Below, piece by piece: positions 32,378 to 39,774 of a stretch of 64,000 bases of DNA; the stretch's first letter is position 1; every line of letters starts with the position of its first letter. The stretch lies in contig CAVUXE010000037.1 of the NCBI GenBank assembly GCA_963745235.1, positions 1 to 64,000 of the forward strand. The letters are read 5' to 3'. Position numbers and translations under genes: made by a program. The DNA is from an uncultured Spirochaetota bacterium (GTDB taxonomy: Bacteria; Spirochaetota; Spirochaetia; SZUA-6; Fen-1364). Under the pieces are notes generated by a model, which saw only the letters and a program-made list of their open reading frames with translations, was not told where the DNA came from and searched no databases.

Positions 32378-33118
32378 TCACGCAACCCTCGTGCTGCTTC
32401 GCGGGGCGTCGTGGGACTTCTCGATCCTTCGCGCAACGAGGAGCGTGGCCTCGTAGAGGATCACAAGCGGAAACATGACGGTCAGGGGCGCGACGATGGG
32501 ATCGCTCACGGGCGTGATGATCTCGGCAAAGGCAAAGAGTATGAAGTACGCGACCCGGCGTCTCTTTTTCAGGACAAAGACGCTCAGTACGTGCAGCCGA
32601 ACAAGGATGATGAGAAGGCACGGGAGCTGAAAAGAGATGCCGCAGGAGAGAAGGAAAAACGTCACGAAGGAGATGTAGTCATCGGCGGAGGGCATGTACT
32701 CGATCCTCGGAGGGAAAAGCTGCACGAGGACCTTGATCATGCTCCAGAGGAGGTAGTAGCCGAAACAGGTCCCTGCCGCGAACAGGACCACCGAAGCCAC
32801 GAGCAACGGCATGACGAGACTTCTCTCGGAGCGCCGCAGCCCGGGGGACACGAAACCGATGAGCTGATGCGCCCAGAGCGGGGTGGTGAGGATGATCCCC
32901 CCGTACAAGGCGAGGCGCAGCTTTATCATCAACCCGTCGAGAAGCCTGAAAGCTCTCAGGTGCAGACCGCCCGAGGGAAGAAGCAGGACGGTCAGGGCGG
33001 AATCGGCGAAAAAGTATGCAACAACGGTTCCCGCAAACACGGCGACGGCGGCAACGAGGAGGCGCCGCCGCAATTCCGACAGGTGATCGGAAAAACTCAT
33101 GAAAGCGTTGCCCGTCAT
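32378..33118 (-). CDS. tatC: Twin-arginine translocase subunit TatC
   Basis: MSFSDHLSELRRRL, FVSPGL...E, GISFQLP, AEIITP..DP, ILYE. Confidence 0.93.
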   Translation of the reverse strand: MTGNAFMSFSDHLSELRRRLLVAAVAVFAGTVVAYFFADSALTVLLLPSGGLHLRAFRLLDGLMIKLRLALYGGIILTTPLWAHQLIGFVSPGLRRSERSLVMPLLVASVVLFAAGTCFGYYLLWSMIKVLVQLFPPRIEYMPSADDYISFVTFFLLSCGISFQLPCLLIILVRLHVLSVFVLKKRRRVAYFILFAFAEIITPVSDPIVAPLTVMFPLVILYEATLLVARRIEKSHDAPRSSTRVA

Positions 33119-33136: not shown

Positions 33137-33469
33137 CTATGAGAGCCTGGCTCCACACTGGCCGCAGAATCGGGACTCCTGCGGGTTCAAAGCGTTGCAC
33201 ACGCCGCATGACCGCCCTGCGGCAGAAACGTTGTGCGGCGCGGGAGCCTGCGCTTGCCGAGACGCGGCGTCATCTTGAGAGCGTCTCTCCTGCACGCCGC
33301 TGCCTCCGTTCTCATCCCTGAACTGCGCACTCATTTCCTGGGCGCCTTTGCGGAACTCCCTGACCGACTTCCCAAGCCAGTGACCAAGTTGGGGAAGTCG
33401 CTTTGGTCCGAATATCACGAGCGCGACGATTCCGATGAAAAGCAGATGAATGGGCTGAAGTCCGAACAT
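33137..33469 (-). CDS. tatA: TatA/E subunit with C-terminal zinc ribbon
   Basis: VALVIFGPKRLPQLG...LGKSVREFRKG; CGVC...SRFCGQCG. Confidence 0.9.
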   Translation of the reverse strand: MFGLQPIHLLFIGIVALVIFGPKRLPQLGHWLGKSVREFRKGAQEMSAQFRDENGGSGVQERRSQDDAASRQAQAPAPHNVSAAGRSCGVCNALNPQESRFCGQCGARLS

Positions 33470-33491: not shown

Positions 33492-33797
33492 CTACTCTCG
33501 TATGCGATAGACAGCGCACGAATGGAAATCGATCTCCCACTTGAAGCCAGGAATCCTCTCCCACAGGTATTTTCGGCTCATCGTGTCCCACCACTGCTGG
33601 AAGCGGCCAGTGTTATCGGCCATGTCACGTACCAATCTCTCGTACAGCGCACTCGCCTGCAGGTCGTTCTCGGGAAGACCGACCAGTGACCGGAAGAGCT
33701 CCGCGAGGCCGTTCTTGCGCTCGAAGAGCATGCGGATCTCGTCCCGTTCCACGCCCTCAACCGCGCCCACGCTCACGCGGTCGTTTTCAGTTGCCAT
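33492..33797 (-). CDS. CXXX-repeat peptide modification system accessory protein (TIGR04116-like)
   Basis: ERDEIRMLFERKNGL, LYERLVRDM, FQQWWD.M..KY.W, WEIDF.SC; match recalled from the family, plus gene context. Confidence 0.8.
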   Translation of the reverse strand: MATENDRVSVGAVEGVERDEIRMLFERKNGLAELFRSLVGLPENDLQASALYERLVRDMADNTGRFQQWWDTMSRKYLWERIPGFKWEIDFHSCAVYRIRE

Positions 33798-34890
33798 TGC
33801 GGTCCTCCTTCTTCAACTGCGCGAGGATCTCTTCCTGCACCGCGAGGATCCGCGCCAGCGTCTGCTCAATGCGCCCGTTTGTGCCCCCCTGCTGAGGCGA
33901 CCCGCGATCCTGGCTCCTGCGAGCGCCGATTTTCGACTGCGCCTGCATGAGCGCATCGAACGGATCGAGGTAGGCGAGCCGGGGGATGGGTTCCGTCCGT
34001 GCAAGGAAAGTCACGTCGCCGAGCAGATCGCGGAGAATGCTGGATGCATTCCTCTCGTGGTGCGAGGCGATGCACTGCTGGTGCGATGGCGCGTTGATCT
34101 CGAGGGTCGTGCGCTTGTTCAGGTAAAGACAGCGCTTGCAATGGTACGCATCGCAGGCTGAACAGATGGCGGCGTGGGCGATGTCCAGGAGTTCGGCGTT
34201 CGGCACGCGGAGGCCCTGGCGAAGATTTCCCACGGGCTGGTTCGGCTCATCGTGCAGGAATCCGGGACAGACATACAGGTTTCCTTCAGGCCCGACGGTC
34301 ACGTGGTCGATCCCCGCCTGGCAGTTGCGCATCGAGGTGAGAAAGATCCTGTCGGTCAGGAAGCCGAGCTCGATGTCGCGCCGCCGCCTCAGCGTCTCGG
34401 CCACGCAATGTGCGAGGTCCTGGAGAGACCGCCAATAGAGCTCGAGCGCCGCATCGCCTGGCGTCTCCAGGTCCAGGAGACAAAGGTTTATCCGCCGGCA
34501 CGTTCCAATCAGCGGGAGCAATACCGCCGGCAGCTCGGCGATACGGCCGATGGGGAAGCGCACGATGATATTGGCATCCCGCACACGGGCTGGCAACGCA
34601 GTCTTTTCGAGGTCTTCGGGCCCGACGATCACCGTCGATGCTGGATGCGCATCCGCCGCGGAAAGCGGGACGATGTCGGCATGGCTGACGCTCTGCATGA
34701 CCGGCGCAAAGGACGCAGGAGGTTCCGTCTCTCCGTATTGGAAGTTCACCACCAGCCCCCGCGCCTGGGCGAACGCAACGGCCTCCCGAAGGGTTTCCAA
34801 CGGGATGGGACGCGGCGCGGGTCTTTCAGGCTTCGCGTAGTAGCAGAAGGAAGGCGCAGACTCGTCGATCGGCACGAGGAGGAACTTCAT
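33787..34890 (-). CDS. CXXX-repeat peptide maturase (TIGR04119-like; SPASM domain, no CxxxCxxC)
   Basis: PSFCYY N-terminus; CQAG..HVTVGPEGNLYVCP, ICSACDAYHCKRC, PSHQQC. Confidence 0.8.
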   Translation of the reverse strand: MKFLLVPIDESAPSFCYYAKPERPAPRPIPLETLREAVAFAQARGLVVNFQYGETEPPASFAPVMQSVSHADIVPLSAADAHPASTVIVGPEDLEKTALPARVRDANIIVRFPIGRIAELPAVLLPLIGTCRRINLCLLDLETPGDAALELYWRSLQDLAHCVAETLRRRRDIELGFLTDRIFLTSMRNCQAGIDHVTVGPEGNLYVCPGFLHDEPNQPVGNLRQGLRVPNAELLDIAHAAICSACDAYHCKRCLYLNKRTTLEINAPSHQQCIASHHERNASSILRDLLGDVTFLARTEPIPRLAYLDPFDALMQAQSKIGARRSQDRGSPQQGGTNGRIEQTLARILAVQEEILAQLKKEDRNGN

Positions 34891-36105
34891 GGCGATGCCC
34901 CCTCGGGGGCTGCGGCAGCGGGCAGTTCTTCACCTACCGGCGGAAGCTTGGCGAACATCTTCCAGTAGTAGCGGTTGGCGCGCACCCGCGCCTTGTGCAT
35001 CGCGCAGATGAAGACGGCCCTCTGATAGATCGTCTCGGTGTCCGCCGCATCGTAGTTCAAGCCCTGGCACCAGGCACATCCGCTGGCAACCTCGCAGGCG
35101 AGGCATTTCTGCGGGCTCTGGCGCATCCGGTCGAGCGTGAGGAACGGACGAAGCCTGTTCTGATCGATCCCCTCGAAGCAGCTTCCCACGGTCCGCGCCG
35201 GGTGTCGCGCGAGCGAGTAGGGTGCGAACCTGATGCAGGGGTAGAAGAGGCCGGCGTGGTCGACGGCGAGCATCTTCCCTGCCCCGCACCAGTTCTGGGT
35301 GTCCTGCTCCGCATCGAGGGGGAGGCCGATCGAATCCGAGAAGAAGGTCGCGGCCACCGTGTTGAAGAGCCCTTTCGCGAGGACGTGGTCTGCAAGCGAT
35401 TTGAGCTGCTCCTCGAGAACCGCATCATCGCCTTCGACCCAGACGTTCTCGAAAACAGTATTGATGAACACGTTCGGTATCCCAAGGTCCCAGAGGTGCA
35501 CGACGCTCTCGAACACGAACGGCAGGTCCTCGTGACCCACCGTGACCTTCGTGCCTGCGCCCGGAAACTGCTCCAGCCACCGGGGGACGTTGCGCACGAC
35601 GTCGCCATAAGATCCCCTCCCATCGGGATACCGGCGCTGCAGGTCGTGCTTGCGCTGCGTGCCATCCAGGCTTAGCCCGATGCTGAGGTGGGCCCTGTTC
35701 TTTGCGATGAAATCCTGGACGCGCGGGTGGTCGTAGAGGATGCCGTTGGTCGAAAGGCTGAACCGGTAGCTGTCGAACCAGGGGTGGTTCTCCTCGTACA
35801 TACGCCGCTTGATGTAGTCGCACACCGCATCGATCAGCTCGATCTCGAGCAGGGGTTCGCCGCCAATGAAAGCCCATTCGACGCTGGACTCGGGAAAGAA
35901 GCGTTGGTTGGCGAGCACGTAGTCCACCGTGCGCCGCGCGATGTCGAAGCTCATGGGGTGCGCGCGGTTCTTGCCCGGACAGGTAACAGTAGCAGCACCG
36001 CAGCTGGCAGTCCTCCGTTACGATGAAGGAGATATTCTTTGCACTGCCTTCGCCCCAGCTCCGTGGCTTCTGCCCGAAAGTGTAATGGCTACTCGGAATA
36101 GACAT
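34887..36105 (-). CDS. Radical SAM peptide maturase, CXXX-repeat target family (TIGR04115-like), frameshift at ~35975
   Basis: ISFIVTEDCQLRCCYCYL in ORF 35425..36105 joins FIGGEPLLE, STNG, NWCGAG, YPCIRF, CLACEVASGCAWC. Confidence 0.88.
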
Positions 36106-36120
36106 GAGAAGGGGAACCTC

Positions 36121-36336
36121 TCAGTGTGCGCAGACCATGGTGCACGTCGTTGAGCAACTCCCCGTGCAGGACGAGCTGCAGCCACCGGTGCAGGTCCCCT
36201 CGCAGTTGTCCTTGCAGGCGCTGGTGCACGTCCCGCCGCATCCTCCTGGCGGCGAGCAACTCGAGAGGCTGAGACCGAGCAGGGCGAACGAGGTGAGGAC
36301 GGTTGCAGCGCTTCTCAAGAAATGACGGCGGTCCAT
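36121..36336 (-). CDS. CXXX-repeat RiPP precursor, 71 aa, with Tat motif and lipobox
   Basis: MDRRHFLRS, hydrophobic core, LSSC27, then Cys at 33, 37, 41, 45, 49, 53, 57, 61, 65 and 69. Confidence 0.85.
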   Translation of the reverse strand: MDRRHFLRSAATVLTSFALLGLSLSSCSPPGGCGGTCTSACKDNCEGTCTGGCSSSCTGSCSTTCTMVCAH

Positions 36337-37458
36337 TTGATCGCTCAGGGCGGGAAGGCCGCCGTCTCCGGTCGTGACGAGCTCGTCATCGACGACGCCT
36401 CTCGCCGCTGGGCTGAGCCTCGACGGGGAATGGCGTCTCTCGGCCGCATCCTGATACTCGTGCCAGGCGCAGCAGTAGGGATCAGGGGCGTTGATGTTGC
36501 CTGTAAAATAGAGGGCGCGCGCCCGGCACCCTCCGCCCGACACCGCGAGGTGCGGGCAGTCGGCACAGCGGGTGTTCAGGGCGAAGACCTTCTTCCTTGC
36601 CAGGTGCTGCGCCCAGAGACTTGCAAGCGGTTGTGCGCGAATGCTGCCTTCAAGGAAATCGTCTCCCAGGAAAGCGCACGGGCTCATGCGGCCGTCGGCC
36701 CTGATGCCGAGCTTGGTATCGGGACAACCGAACCGCTGCGTTTCATTTCCCGCGCCGCATTGGAGCGAAAGGTCGGGAGATCGGCCTATGGCGGCGATCA
36801 TCTGCCAGGCTTCGCCCGCCATCGATGGCGGGATGAGAAGTGAGGAGTTCTCGAGCGCCCTGCCCGCGGGCTTGACGAGCCCGACGACGAGATTGCGTAC
36901 TCCAATGCTTTTCAGGAACTCGGGCAGGCGCGAGATCTCCTGCATGTTCTCGCGGTGAACGGAATACTGAACGACGAGGTCTCGGATATCCGCCGACTGC
37001 AGAAGCCTGATTCCTCGCAGGGCCGCAGCGAAGGCGCCCTGGCTTCGAAGGGAATCATGGGTCTCCGGGGTCACACCATCAAGGCTGACTTTCACCCGCA
37101 CCTGCTCCTGCGCCAGGCAAGCAGCTGTCTCGGCCGTGACGAGGGATCCCGTGGTCAGGAGCGTTACCGCGAGGCTTTTCGCTCGCGCGCGGGAGACGAA
37201 ATGCCGCAACCCGCTTCGCATCATCGGCTCGCCGCCTGAGAAGGTCACAGCTGGCACGCCCATGTCGCTCACCTGATCAATGAGCGAGAGCACTTCCCCG
37301 TCGGAGAGCTCCTGTTCCATGGGCTTCCCCGCGGAGCAATAGCAGTGCCTGCATTGATTGGAACACCTGTTCGTCAGGTCGATGTAGACGCGTGATGGAA
37401 GAAGCGGTGAGAAGGTCTTTCTTTCAGAGCCCATTCCGACATAGAGACTTCTTGCCAT
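36121..37458 (-). CDS. Radical SAM/SPASM enzyme whose frame continues into the Cys-rich peptide
   Basis: TNRCSNQCRHCYC, FSGGEP, VSLDG, CADC....GGGCRARA, PDPYC, then a linker and MDRRHFL... Confidence 0.88.
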   Translation of the reverse strand: MARSLYVGMGSERKTFSPLLPSRVYIDLTNRCSNQCRHCYCSAGKPMEQELSDGEVLSLIDQVSDMGVPAVTFSGGEPMMRSGLRHFVSRARAKSLAVTLLTTGSLVTAETAACLAQEQVRVKVSLDGVTPETHDSLRSQGAFAAALRGIRLLQSADIRDLVVQYSVHRENMQEISRLPEFLKSIGVRNLVVGLVKPAGRALENSSLLIPPSMAGEAWQMIAAIGRSPDLSLQCGAGNETQRFGCPDTKLGIRADGRMSPCAFLGDDFLEGSIRAQPLASLWAQHLARKKVFALNTRCADCPHLAVSGGGCRARALYFTGNINAPDPYCCAWHEYQDAAERRHSPSRLSPAARGVVDDELVTTGDGGLPALSDQMDRRHFLRSAATVLTSFALLGLSLSSCSPPGGCGGTCTSACKDNCEGTCTGGCSSSCTGSCSTTCTMVCAH

Positions 37459-37551: not shown

Positions 37552-37728
37552 GAAGAATATCTCAAGAGCTCAAAAAACTGCAAAATGAAACTCGGTATAC
37601 AAAGCCGCCATACCAGAATCCATACCTATTGGATGAGCCACCGTAGCTGGGGTAGCGGAAATAGCTTCGAGAGCCTTGAAATAGCTCGAAAACGGGCCTC
37701 ATAGCGCGTGTAGGAAGGATGGACGCGC

Positions 37729-37784
37729 CTCAAAATCTGGTGGGTGGCAACGCCCGTGTCGGTTCAAGTCCGACCGCCGGCAGA
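37729..37784 (+). repeat. attR: duplicated 3' half of tRNA-Leu
   Basis: Identical to 32107-32162. Confidence 0.95.
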
Positions 37785-37829
37785 CAATTCCATCCTTGAT
37801 CGGTTTTGCACTCTGGGCGCGATTGCGGG

Positions 37830-38140
37830 GCACGCTGCTGCGAGCCCACGAATGCACCGTATCCGCTGCCTGCCGCGCCTCCTTGGCGTCTGATAGGGTC
37901 AACTCCAGTTCGTTATCGGGGCAGCGGACTTCAACGGCGTACGGATTCAAGATCTGGTCGGCCGCTCGCACGGCAGAAGGGACTCCTTCCGCCCGGTCCG
38001 CGCTGACTTCTTCCATGAGCGCCAGGTTGGCCGCTCTTTCCATTCCCGGCGTGGCTGCGCAAGGCCGAAAACGACCTTCTTTCTCAGCCGGCATGAACTT
38101 CTTTGCCCTGAGAAATGACCGCCATCTCTGCCAGCAACCG
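37830..38140. pseudogene. HEPN-domain remnant
   Basis: Minus strand LNPYAVEVRCPD...DAKEARQAA; plus strand WLRKAENDLL...CQQ. Confidence 0.5.
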
Positions 38141-38179
38141 CACGCCGACGCGCCGGTAGGCGCGAAGCGTGCCCTGGAC

Positions 38180-38850
38180 CGATGATAGTAGCGCACGAGG
38201 CTCGAAAGGCTCTGGCGGAACGCTATTGGCTTTCCCCCCTCCGCCTCTGCGTTGATCTGCGGAATGGTCTCAGCACCCTCCAGCAGTGGCCAATAGTGTT
38301 GCCGCCACTTCTCGCTGACTTCCAGGAGCGGGACACTGACCGACCCGATGGGCTCCCAGCGAGCGGAGGCCCACGAAGTCATGGCGATATCGCAAAGCGC
38401 GCGGATCAAGGCCAGCTTGTACGTAGCCACCTTCCGATCAGCGTTGATGATGCTTTCCACCCGATCGATGGCGCGCGTGCTCACTCCGGAGGACTGGAAG
38501 TACAGTGTTGCCCAGAGAAAGCCCCTCCCAGCGGAGTCAGCGGATTTCCATTCATTCTCAAGCTCAAACCCAAGCCGTTCGAAAAGGAGCCGAACCTGGG
38601 CAACGGACCGGATGATCATGAGCCTGCCCGCCTCATCACGCTGACCGCCGGGCCTGATGTCACCCCGCTCGACTGGCATAGAGATCAGGAGCTTCCCGCC
38701 CTTCTTGAGGCGCTGGCGAAGCTCGAACGCGACGTCGAAGAGCTCTCCGTCCGGGATGTGCATGATAACGCAGAGAGGAGAACACCGTCATACTCGTGTC
38801 GGATATCCGAGGGCAGGCCTCCAGGCAGGAAGCCATCAGAGAGCTTGCCC
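38180..38850 (-). pseudogene. Internal fragment of a class I methyltransferase/HNH-type fusion gene
   Basis: YDGVLLSA..MHIP, LKKGGKLLIS, DRK.ATYKLALIRAL, HYWPL; both ends missing. Confidence 0.6.
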
Positions 38851-39774
38851 AGATGGAACTTCATACTTACCGGCAGCTCCGCGCGTCAACTCAGGCGAGG
38901 CAGCGCCAATCTCCTTCCTGGCCGAAGCATCGCACATACCCTGACTCCCGTCATGCAGGCAGAGTGCAGGCCGAGTACTCTGCTGCCGGCCGCCCTGCCG
39001 GCTGAGCCGAGATTTCCCCAGAGGAGCCTGGAAGACTACTTGCTGTTCGGAAGCCTCCCTGGGCTGTATTCAGAAGGACGGGACGCCTGGGCTGAGACGC
39101 TGGCAACGTGGGCCGATCTTTACATCGAGAATGAGGTCCGGCAGGAAAACATCGTCAGGGACATGGGAGCTTTCAGCCGGTTTATCGAGCTTGCGGCGCT
39201 TGAGTCCGGCCGTATCGTCAACTACACCAAGATGGCCTCCGCCGTGGGCGTGGCCGTGAACACGCTCCGCAATTTCTTCCAAGTCCTTGAGGACACCTTC
39301 CTCGGAATACGGGTACCGCCATTCACCGAAACACGCCGCCGTGTCGCCCTGGCACCCCGGTTCGTTCTCTTCGACATAGGAGTTCGCCATGCTCTTGCCG
39401 GTCTTCGCATCTCAGAGGACCTCATTCGCATTGGGGCGGAGGAGCTCTTCGAACAATGGGTCATCTCCGAGCTCTGCCACCGCGCCACTGCCCTGGGGCC
39501 TGGATACTCCGTCAGCTCCTGGCGCACCTCTGGCGGGGCAGAGGTGGACGCCATCCTGCGAACTCCCGAGGAGGTGATTCCCGTGGAGATCAAATGGACC
39601 GACAGCCCGCGGCCATCGGACGCGCGGCACGTGGAGACCTTTCTCGATCTCCACTCGGGGGCGAATCGAGGCTTTGTGGTGTGCCGCACTCCCTCACGCC
39701 AGGCGCTTACCGACCGGGTCACTGCGCTGCCGTGGAATGAGTTCTATAGCTACAGCTTGTCGGGTAATTGCTAG
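38850..39774 (+). pseudogene. 5'-truncated AAA_14/DUF4143 ATPase
   Basis: FILTGSS..L.GR, FGSLP, LFDIG, EVDAI, PVEIK; no Walker A; 3' end runs into the IS. Confidence 0.75.

Follow-up and report, generated by a model that had tools for sequence, protein, structure and literature searches.

The window analysed here, 64,000 nt of contig CAVUXE010000037.1 from an uncultured Spirochaetota bacterium (assembly GCA_963745235.1), carries on its minus strand a gene for a 71-aa Cys-rich peptide which, judging from its genomic context and architecture, is a substrate of the database-defined CXXX-repeat radical S-adenosylmethionine (SAM) system. The peptide contains a twin-arginine leader that ends in a lipobox, and its gene is followed by three CXXX maturase genes and a tatA-tatC pair. 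We consider it rather probable that this precursor is modified by the radical SAM system, exported via the twin-arginine translocation (Tat) pathway, lipidated at Cys27 and cleaved, which would leave a membrane-anchored peptide.

Sequence features of the peptide

36121..36336, minus strand: CXXX-repeat precursor of 71 aa, translation MDRRHFLRSAATVLTSFALLGLSLSSCSPPGGCGGTCTSACKDNCEGTCTGGCSSSCTGSCSTTCTMVCAH, equal to residues 375-445 of a 445-aa open reading frame (ORF)
36325..36330, minus strand: twin-arginine codons (R3 and R4 of the peptide), where D-R-R-H-F-L fits Z-R-R-x-Phi-Phi
36256..36267, minus strand: lipobox L24-S-S-C27, which fits [LVI][ASTVI][GAS]C
36130..36240, minus strand: ten-Cys array, C33 to C69, with Cys at every fourth residue (spacing compared with shuffles)

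The peptide gene extended from an ATG at 36336 to a TGA stop at 36123-36121, and its product was composed of MDRRHFL, an uncharged stretch of 18 residues (S9-S26), LSSC with Cys27, an SPPGG spacer and the ten-Cys array. A reading of this DNA made from the letters alone, called the sequence-only reading below, had pointed out the agreement of DRRHFL with the Tat consensus. The translation bore this out, as D-R-R-H-F-L conformed to the general Tat pattern Z-R-R-x-Phi-Phi (PMC13673990) and was followed by an uncharged h-region. The lipobox noticed in the same reading was likewise found at the end of the h-region, as L24-S25-S26-C27, in accordance with the consensus [LVI][ASTVI][GAS]C (PMC12462473). 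None of the seven residues preceding Cys27 was charged. The PROSITE-type rule for lipoproteins places the Cys 15-35 residues from a free N-terminus bearing Lys or Arg; the peptide agrees with this rule if translation starts at the ATG at 36336, and disagrees if the 445-aa chain is the sole product.

Cys residues were located at positions 27, 33, 37, 41, 45, 49, 53, 57, 61, 65 and 69, corresponding to one gap of 6 followed by nine gaps of 4. The spacing of the ten Cys after SPPGG, also described in the sequence-only reading, was exact, and 200,000 shuffled versions of residues 33-71 never yielded it. All eleven Cys were encoded by TGC. The third-position GC content was 0.79 in the peptide frame and 0.42 and 0.75 in the remaining two, and thus favoured the peptide frame. 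Asp or Glu occurred in only two units of the array (KDN and EGT), in neither case four residues past a Cys.

Family assignment and gene order

Residues 1-70 of the peptide matched the NCBIfam family TIGR04117 ('Cys-Xaa-Xaa-Xaa repeat radical SAM target protein') with E = 4e-12; the score against TIGR04114 was 12.1 bits (cut-off 20). The gene order on the minus strand was peptide, TIGR04115, TIGR04119, TIGR04116, tatA and tatC, with the TIGR04115 start 15 nt past the peptide stop.

34887..36105, minus strand: TIGR04115, CXXX-repeat-family radical SAM maturase (518.5 bits, cut-off 350), frame broken near 35977
33787..34890, minus strand: TIGR04119, CXXX repeat peptide maturase (195.3 bits, cut-off 150)
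33492..33797, minus strand: TIGR04116, CXXX repeat peptide modification system protein (78.8 bits, cut-off 50)
33137..33469, minus strand: TatA/E-family subunit in the operon (TIGR01411, 55.7 bits, cut-off 53.9)
32378..33118, minus strand: TatC in the operon, the second copy in the genome (TIGR00945, 153.5 bits; PF00902, 173.6 bits)
36105..36123, minus strand: 7-bp hairpin TGAGAGG/CTTCTCA over the peptide stop and the TIGR04115 start, listed as a description only, with a frequency not above that in shuffles

The repeat architecture and the adjoining TIGR04115, TIGR04119 and TIGR04116 genes, with a TIGR04117 score close to the cut-off, mark the peptide as a CXXX-system substrate. Two proteins from metagenomes, P0003 of 447 aa and P0004 of 463 aa, carried the Pfam family for such targets, PF27846 (tSAM_targ_Cxxx_rpt). 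The nearest Protein Atlas clusters (scores 0.85-0.87) also belonged to PF27846 and led to the family name only. A word-indexed protein search with the 71-aa peptide returned no match of near or greater length, P0003 and P0004 included, a weak negative obtained with a low-complexity query. No published account of a CXXX-system product was found in a full-text literature search. The AlphaFold2 (AF2) model of the TIGR04116 protein was confident, with a predicted local distance difference test score (pLDDT) of 92; neither a sequence search of the PDB (below E = 0.08) nor a Foldseek search (at E ≤ 0.001) produced a match.

The array in the window was the shortest seen, with 10 Cys as compared with up to 71 in the family. 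Across the CXXX family, 808 of the 996 Cys-Cys gaps were equal to 4, and the repeat unit was C-x-[G 38%, D 11%, N 9%]-[T 29%, S 22%, G 16%]. As the family unit thus reads C-x-[G/D/N]-[T/S/G], Thr or Ser at the third position of the unit is a candidate acceptor for cross-links.

The hairpin at 36105-36123 could tune the ratio of peptide to maturase, and comparable sites were not more frequent than by chance. A scan of the cluster for promoters and terminators gave nothing above shuffles. A minus-strand ORF of 354 aa (37699-38763), located upstream of the cluster and without a family match, overlapped a plus-strand ORF for a DUF4143/AAA_14 ATPase (38182-39774); probably just one of them is genuine.

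Tat-type leaders in the CXXX family

An alignment of three TIGR04115 proteins was used to fetch 42 comparison loci from many phyla. TIGR04115 and TIGR04119 were present in all 42 and TIGR04116 in 38 of them, in the same gene order as in the window. A precursor was defined as a same-strand ORF segment with at least four Cys at a spacing of 4, and a Tat-type leader as RR-x-[FLIVM]-[FLIVMA] with an uncharged run of at least 12 residues after it. By these definitions, 70 precursor segments were found in 36 of the 42 loci, and a Tat-type leader was seen in 59 of the segments and in 30 of the 36 loci. The background of the Tat rule in the same loci was 61 of 2,821 other ORF segments of 60-250 aa (2.2%). 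The Tat-type leader, proposed in the sequence-only reading for a single peptide, is backed by this comparison as well as by the tatA and tatC genes in the operon, and appears, on the strength of these counts, to be a family-wide feature.

Six loci had a precursor with no Tat-type call (L021, L029, L033, L055, L057 and L058). Among them, L021 contained DRREFL in a frame cut by TGA, and the N-terminus in L055 was hydrophobic and Sec-like. No precursor was obtained with the strict rule in L020, L024, L040, L048, L052 and L059; under a looser inspection, L048 proved to have a precursor of the RR type, and L059 Cys-rich peptides that carry no signal. The TGA in L021, a Brevinematales locus (L018 1380-1800, minus strand), was located where the lipobox Cys aligns (GVSLLR-stop-SNSPG) and was followed by more stops; decay into a pseudogene, an error in the sequence or recoding of the codon could each account for it.

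In the family alignment R, R and F were invariant, a circular result for these three residues, since the rows had been selected by the RR rule. The leader core kept in many phyla was RR-x-F-x-K-x-x-x-K-x-x-[IL]-P-x-[LI]-x-x-L-[GS]-L, and such striking conservation suggests that the leader doubles as a recognition element for the maturases. The prediction of a complex of TIGR04119, TIGR04116 and leader residues 1-40 gave a score of 0.16, compared with a mark of 0.32.

Export genes beside CXXX clusters

The biosynthesis of peptides that are ribosomally synthesized and then post-translationally modified (RiPPs) usually involves a leader peptide, a dedicated protease and an ATP-binding cassette (ABC) exporter. 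ABC exporters (ABC_membrane plus ABC_tran, or ABC_tran) were encoded beside the cluster in 4 of the 42 loci (L029, L033, L052 and L059), in L029 together with a Peptidase_S8 subtilase. None of these four had a Tat-type precursor, L052 being without any detected precursor, and none of the 30 Tat-type loci had an ABC exporter within the fetched locus DNA. The sequence-only reading had attributed the absence of a dedicated protease to cleavage by signal peptidase II (SPII). The absence fits this explanation, as exporters and subtilase were confined to loci without Tat-type precursors; SPII cleavage itself stays a prediction.

Genes for TatA and/or TatC were located directly downstream of TIGR04116 in 5 of the 42 loci (L020, L021, L024, L036 and L041). 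Given the one to three TatC genes of a genome of several megabases, it is very unlikely, by estimate rather than by computation, that chance alone placed them there in five loci. The operon-linked TatC was the sole TatC match in three genomes, two of Spirochaetales and one of Brevinematales; three matches were found in a Prevotellaceae genome and two in a Bacteroidales genome. The source genome of the window had two tatA-tatC pairs, one in the operon and one on contig C79.

C79 8379-9304 (locus L090): second tatA-tatC pair, tatC read in two overlapping frames

Downstream of the C79 pair, synteny with genomes of the same genus extended over about 2.4 kb, and what the operon pair had in common with them was only tatA-tatC itself. 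The synteny of the C79 pair within the genus indicated that tatA-tatC in the operon is the additional copy. The operon TatC showed 62-64% identity to TatC of five same-genus genomes and 28-30% to TatC of other CXXX loci and is, as judged from these values, a lineage-internal paralogue. Import of tatAC together with the cluster from another phylum was considered as an origin and was ruled out by the same identities. In a sample of 401 genomes of the phylum, TatC was detected in 217 and TIGR04115 in two, and the TIGR04115 system was found in none of 20 same-genus genomes.

Lipobox comparison and predicted lipidation

Cys27 was out of the register of the array, with a gap of 6 to the next Cys. 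The sequence-only reading had named a comparison with other CXXX-repeat precursors for a lipobox as a check on its proposal, and in that comparison an out-of-register Cys was kept in several relatives. The lipobox was LSLSGC in P0003 and P0004, where the next Cys came after a gap of 3, and LSISGC in a Brevinematales paralogue (L014), where the gap was 7. Profile searches in two Spirochaetales genomes of the same order (G441 and G442, loci L083-L087) found 5 and 9 unlinked precursors, and the sole TatC match in these genomes adjoined the maturase operon. All nine precursors that were read had D/N/T-RR-x-F-[LI] and an h-region ending in x-x-[GS]-C, followed by 14-71 Cys.

The strict lipobox rule was passed in 7 of the 42 comparison loci, from Bacteroidota, Chlorobiota and Myxococcota/'delta', with L032 (LSNC) as a near miss, and 52 of the 59 Tat-type segments had no strict lipobox. 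Leaders in Veillonellaceae ended in AQA↓AGC or ALA↓ASC, and long polar spacers were present in planctomycete, acidobacterial and Ignavibacteria members. These differences at the leader end among lineages suggest that the family has a Tat leader with lineage-specific processing, and that the window peptide falls into a lipoprotein subset.

The 52 segments without a strict lipobox and the Veillonellaceae leaders are consistent with Tat export without lipidation, in which signal peptidase I would cut the window peptide near SLS↓S to give a soluble periplasmic or secreted peptide, cross-linked or metal-binding. The small residues at positions -1 and -3 would also suit that enzyme. On the other side, a Cys stands straight after the h-region and out of the array register, this Cys is kept in P0003, P0004, L014 and 9/9 of the same-order precursors, and the source genome encodes both Lgt (PF01790, 217 bits) and LspA (PF01252, 90.8 bits). 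Release of a non-lipidated peptide is therefore regarded as unlikely, and lipidation at Cys27 is preferred.

Three Bacteroidales precursors (L036, L041 and L043) had acidic runs past the lipobox Cys (CKKDEEEDDDD, CEPDDEDG and CDPDIE, respectively), which we take to resemble the surface-export signal of Bacteroidota lipoproteins, hinting at surface display.

In-frame fusion to a second radical SAM enzyme

The peptide frame was free of stops back to an ATG at 37458, giving the 445-aa ORF (37458..36121) in which the peptide starts at M375.

36457..37458, minus strand: second radical SAM/SPASM enzyme, named rSAM2 here, residues 1 to about 334 (PF04055, E = 3e-22)
36337..36456, minus strand: in-frame linker of about residues 335-374, no stop, modelled as disordered (pLDDT about 40)

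The sequence-only reading had missed this fused enzyme; its Tat leader, its lipobox and its view of the missing protease were those parts of the interpretation that gained from the comparison with other loci. The best NCBIfam matches of rSAM2 were AhbD, NirJ, StsB and MftC, all far under the cut-offs. The AF2 model of the 445-aa chain was confident at residues 20-345, and the tail and the leader helix were of low confidence and undocked, so the model was uninformative on modification in cis. P0003 and P0004 shared 55% identity and the same enzyme-linker-precursor build, with linkers of 41-44 residues that differed in sequence and ended in LP/FP-x-LS-x-Q-M, followed by DRR[ED]FL...LSLSGC and a CXXX array. 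About 35 other rSAM2 homologues (41-50% identity, 341-378 aa) had no such tail. Scanning metagenomes with an alignment of rSAM2 recovered 21 loci in which the homologue stands alone, and not the contigs of P0003 and P0004. Several of these loci (L061-L078, 43-51% identity) had a methyltransferase-like ORF downstream and, where the downstream region was covered, none had a Cys-repeat peptide; the stand-alone homologues appear to be part of another system, so far undescribed.

Inspection of 35 nt upstream of each gene showed GAGG or AGGAGG 6-13 nt before rSAM2, TIGR04119, TIGR04116, tatA and tatC, and a more distant GAGAGG before TIGR04115. The ATG of the peptide, located inside the longer ORF, had no Shine-Dalgarno sequence, with only TGAGCG upstream. 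Translation of the peptide and rSAM2 as one chain is favoured by this lack of a Shine-Dalgarno sequence. Since the junction was unchanged in public contigs, the fusion is, as far as these sequences tell, not an artefact of the source assembly.

The 445-aa chain may accordingly be considered as the real precursor. In such an obligate fusion rSAM2 would stay in the cytoplasm, the internal RR and h-region would carry only the Cys tail through Tat, and cleavage at the lipobox (Cys401, equal to Cys27) would release the lipopeptide. The absence of a stop from the SPASM domain to the peptide, the start codon context, the unchanged junction in independent public contigs, the same build in P0003 and P0004 with linkers of similar length and different sequence, and the predicted disorder of the linker all speak for this possibility. 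Against it, rSAM2 was found in none of the 42 other CXXX loci, where precursors stand alone, the only fused-length match among 1.84 billion representative proteins was the P0003 cluster, and an allele present in runs of three studies breaks rSAM2 and spares the peptide. The two-residue n-region before RR is also compatible with a free start, being workable as in the example of CueO. A Tat signal of the FecR type, internal and behind a folded cytoplasmic domain, is a recognised class, and the known internal signals are described there as non-cleaved (PMC13673990). Taken together, we regard the obligate fusion as a serious but doubtful alternative to a separately translated precursor.

In another interpretation the peptide would be no substrate at all, and the Cys-rich tail a cytoplasmic metal- or Fe-S-binding extension of rSAM2. 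The continuous reading frame agrees with it, as does the fact that SPASM enzymes are Cys-rich themselves. This interpretation is highly improbable, as the tail matched the CXXX target family with its leader included, contained an RR motif and a hydrophobic stretch of 18 residues, and was followed by three dedicated CXXX maturase genes, and as the tail is missing from the 35 or so rSAM2 homologues of 341-378 aa.

Alleles and frame breaks

The source metagenome-assembled genome was 85.7% complete with 5.9% contamination, and near-identical DNA occurred in metagenome runs of soil and peat from three studies. TIGR04115 was split in the window, with its first 50 or so residues, including CQLRCCYC (35955-36105), in another frame. 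A public contig with one base fewer at 35977 encoded an intact TIGR04115 protein of 405 aa from the ATG at 36105. Contigs from runs of three studies had lost 1 nt at 36715 and gained 11 nt after 36855, which placed rSAM2 in three frames and left the peptide intact; a fourth run carried the window version at 36715. A 177-aa fragment from a protein library, 97% identical, fitted the allele with the broken rSAM2. The junction and the peptide showed zero differences in the covering public contigs, which came from runs of at least two studies. Two contigs of run X2 matched the peptide region and then continued into unrelated sequence at 36229 and 36263; they may represent other Cys-repeat genes or chimeric assembly.

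The frameshift in TIGR04115, the changes of -1 and +11 nt in rSAM2 and the absence of the system from all 20 same-genus genomes could point to a decaying or silent cluster, whose genes are being lost and whose product is not made. Indel errors in the source assembly are plausible, because tatC on C79 was also split into two frames. An intact TIGR04115 frame existed in one public contig, the remaining genes were intact with good ribosome-binding sites, and the peptide was identical across all covering contigs. Decay is thus considered quite improbable.

Proposed maturation route

For the functional cluster favoured here, we infer the following route from the gene content; it builds on direct observations of features in the sequence, of the order of the genes and of how both are conserved. 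In the cytoplasm TIGR04115, aided by TIGR04119 and TIGR04116 and perhaps by rSAM2, would modify the Cys-x-x-x array. The modification would most likely consist of sulfur-to-carbon (thioether) cross-links, given the homology of TIGR04115 to PapB-type enzymes, the type of cross-link being a guess by analogy; a one-sided Cys ladder that binds metal is an equal candidate. The twin-arginine leader would pass the finished, compact product to the Tat translocase formed from the operon tatA and tatC, a route that would be taken on account of the cross-links or cofactor that the product already bears. Lgt would then diacylglycerylate Cys27 in LSSC and LspA would remove the leader, resulting in an anchored peptide starting at Cys27. 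General signal peptidases would in this manner do the work for which leader-type members of the family have a leader protease and an ABC exporter of their own.

Several observations weigh against this route. The peptide reached 46.0 bits with TIGR04117, below the cut-off of 50, and 49.7 or 50.1 bits in a six-frame search of the genome, the former for the single match and the latter including neighbouring matches in the frame. The curated Tat hidden Markov models were silent: no Tat-signal model in NCBIfam matched the peptide at E ≤ 10, Pfam TAT_signal (PF10518) did not match the 445-aa ORF at E ≤ 1, and it matched none of 38 aligned precursors at E ≤ 0.1, weak matches being limited to P0003 and P0004, the latter at 19.2 bits and so under the cut-off (22.7). 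Both the Tat rule and the lipobox rule were home-made. The profile used for G441 and G442 included the RR and the h-region, and so favoured Tat-type members. A Cys-rich peptide that is also rich in Gly, Ser and Thr can yield x-x-[GAS]-C by composition alone. Finally, the missing Shine-Dalgarno sequence and the in-frame enzyme mean that the leader may not be N-terminal and that a free-standing signal peptide may not exist; the signal peptidase I site and the split TIGR04115 described above add to these points.

Relation to known systems

The peptide architecture and the order of the maturase genes were the same as in the CXXX-repeat system (TIGR04114/TIGR04117, PF27846). Compared with other CXXX loci, the window adds the fused rSAM2 (0/42 elsewhere) and its own tatA-tatC. 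Precedents exist for enzymes that act on a tail or on a small partner: in borosins, an OphMA-type enzyme carries its own core peptide as a C-terminal tail, and in the QhpD/QhpC pair a small subunit rich in Cys is cross-linked by a radical SAM enzyme ahead of export. The two belong to other enzyme families and are not known to have a Tat leader or a lipobox.

The TIGR04115 protein was related to PapB, the enzyme of ranthipeptides of the freyrasin type (NF047865, 162 bits, cut-off 340). PapB makes Cys-Asp and Cys-Glu thioether links in repeated motifs (PMC9413430). The PapB acceptor arrangement, Cys-x3-Asp/Glu, is absent from the window peptide and the export route differs too; by its sequence the peptide is not a ranthipeptide of the PapB type.

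A functional likeness was found in the DAG-RiPPs (2026, PNAS), precursors modified by multinuclear non-haem iron-dependent oxidases (MNIOs), in which an SPII leader called by SignalP and an extra conserved Cys lead to a lipidated N-terminus, as shown experimentally (PMC13056109). The window system would share the lipoprotein-signal leader, the cytoplasmic modification and the extra Cys to be lipidated. It differs in having radical SAM/SPASM maturases and no MNIO, a twin-arginine leader, and tatAC in the cluster; the words 'Tat', 'twin-arginine' and 'radical' are all absent from the main text of that report (PMC13056109). By analogy, the window system works like a DAG-RiPP system without belonging to those MNIO families.

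Lipoproteins form an established class of Tat substrates, class II (PMC13673990). The free 71-aa form would belong to this class, and the 445-aa form would correspond in topology to class V, represented by FecR. Class V signals are described as non-cleaved, and a lipobox-bearing class V protein would be a hybrid absent from that description (PMC13673990).

Implications for the CXXX family

What appears new, as read from the sequences, is the family-wide Tat leader, the contrast between exporter and Tat loci, the Tat genes within clusters, the lipobox subset in spirochaetes and the conserved fusion of enzyme and substrate. One radical SAM family appears with two interchangeable exits, an ABC exporter (once with a subtilase) or a twin-arginine leader, and the Tat pathway is a sensible choice for a peptide cross-linked by cytoplasmic Fe-S enzymes prior to export. 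If the proposal is true, the CXXX family would be the first radical SAM class of RiPPs with Tat export, and one that has recruited Tat genes into its cluster.

The fusion provides a simple construct for Tat delivery and SPII release of a tail behind a folded domain. Should the 445-aa chain be the real precursor, rSAM2 would be a single-use maturase, with the leader acting at once as a tether and as the signal both for Tat and for lipoprotein processing. Through the lipobox subset, the RiPP-lipoprotein hybrids would come to include a second class of enzymes and a second pathway of export. The subset would likewise indicate a large set of Cys-ladder surface lipoproteins, with up to 71 Cys, in spirochaetes and Bacteroidota, for which metal handling, redox reactions and envelope structure are candidate roles.

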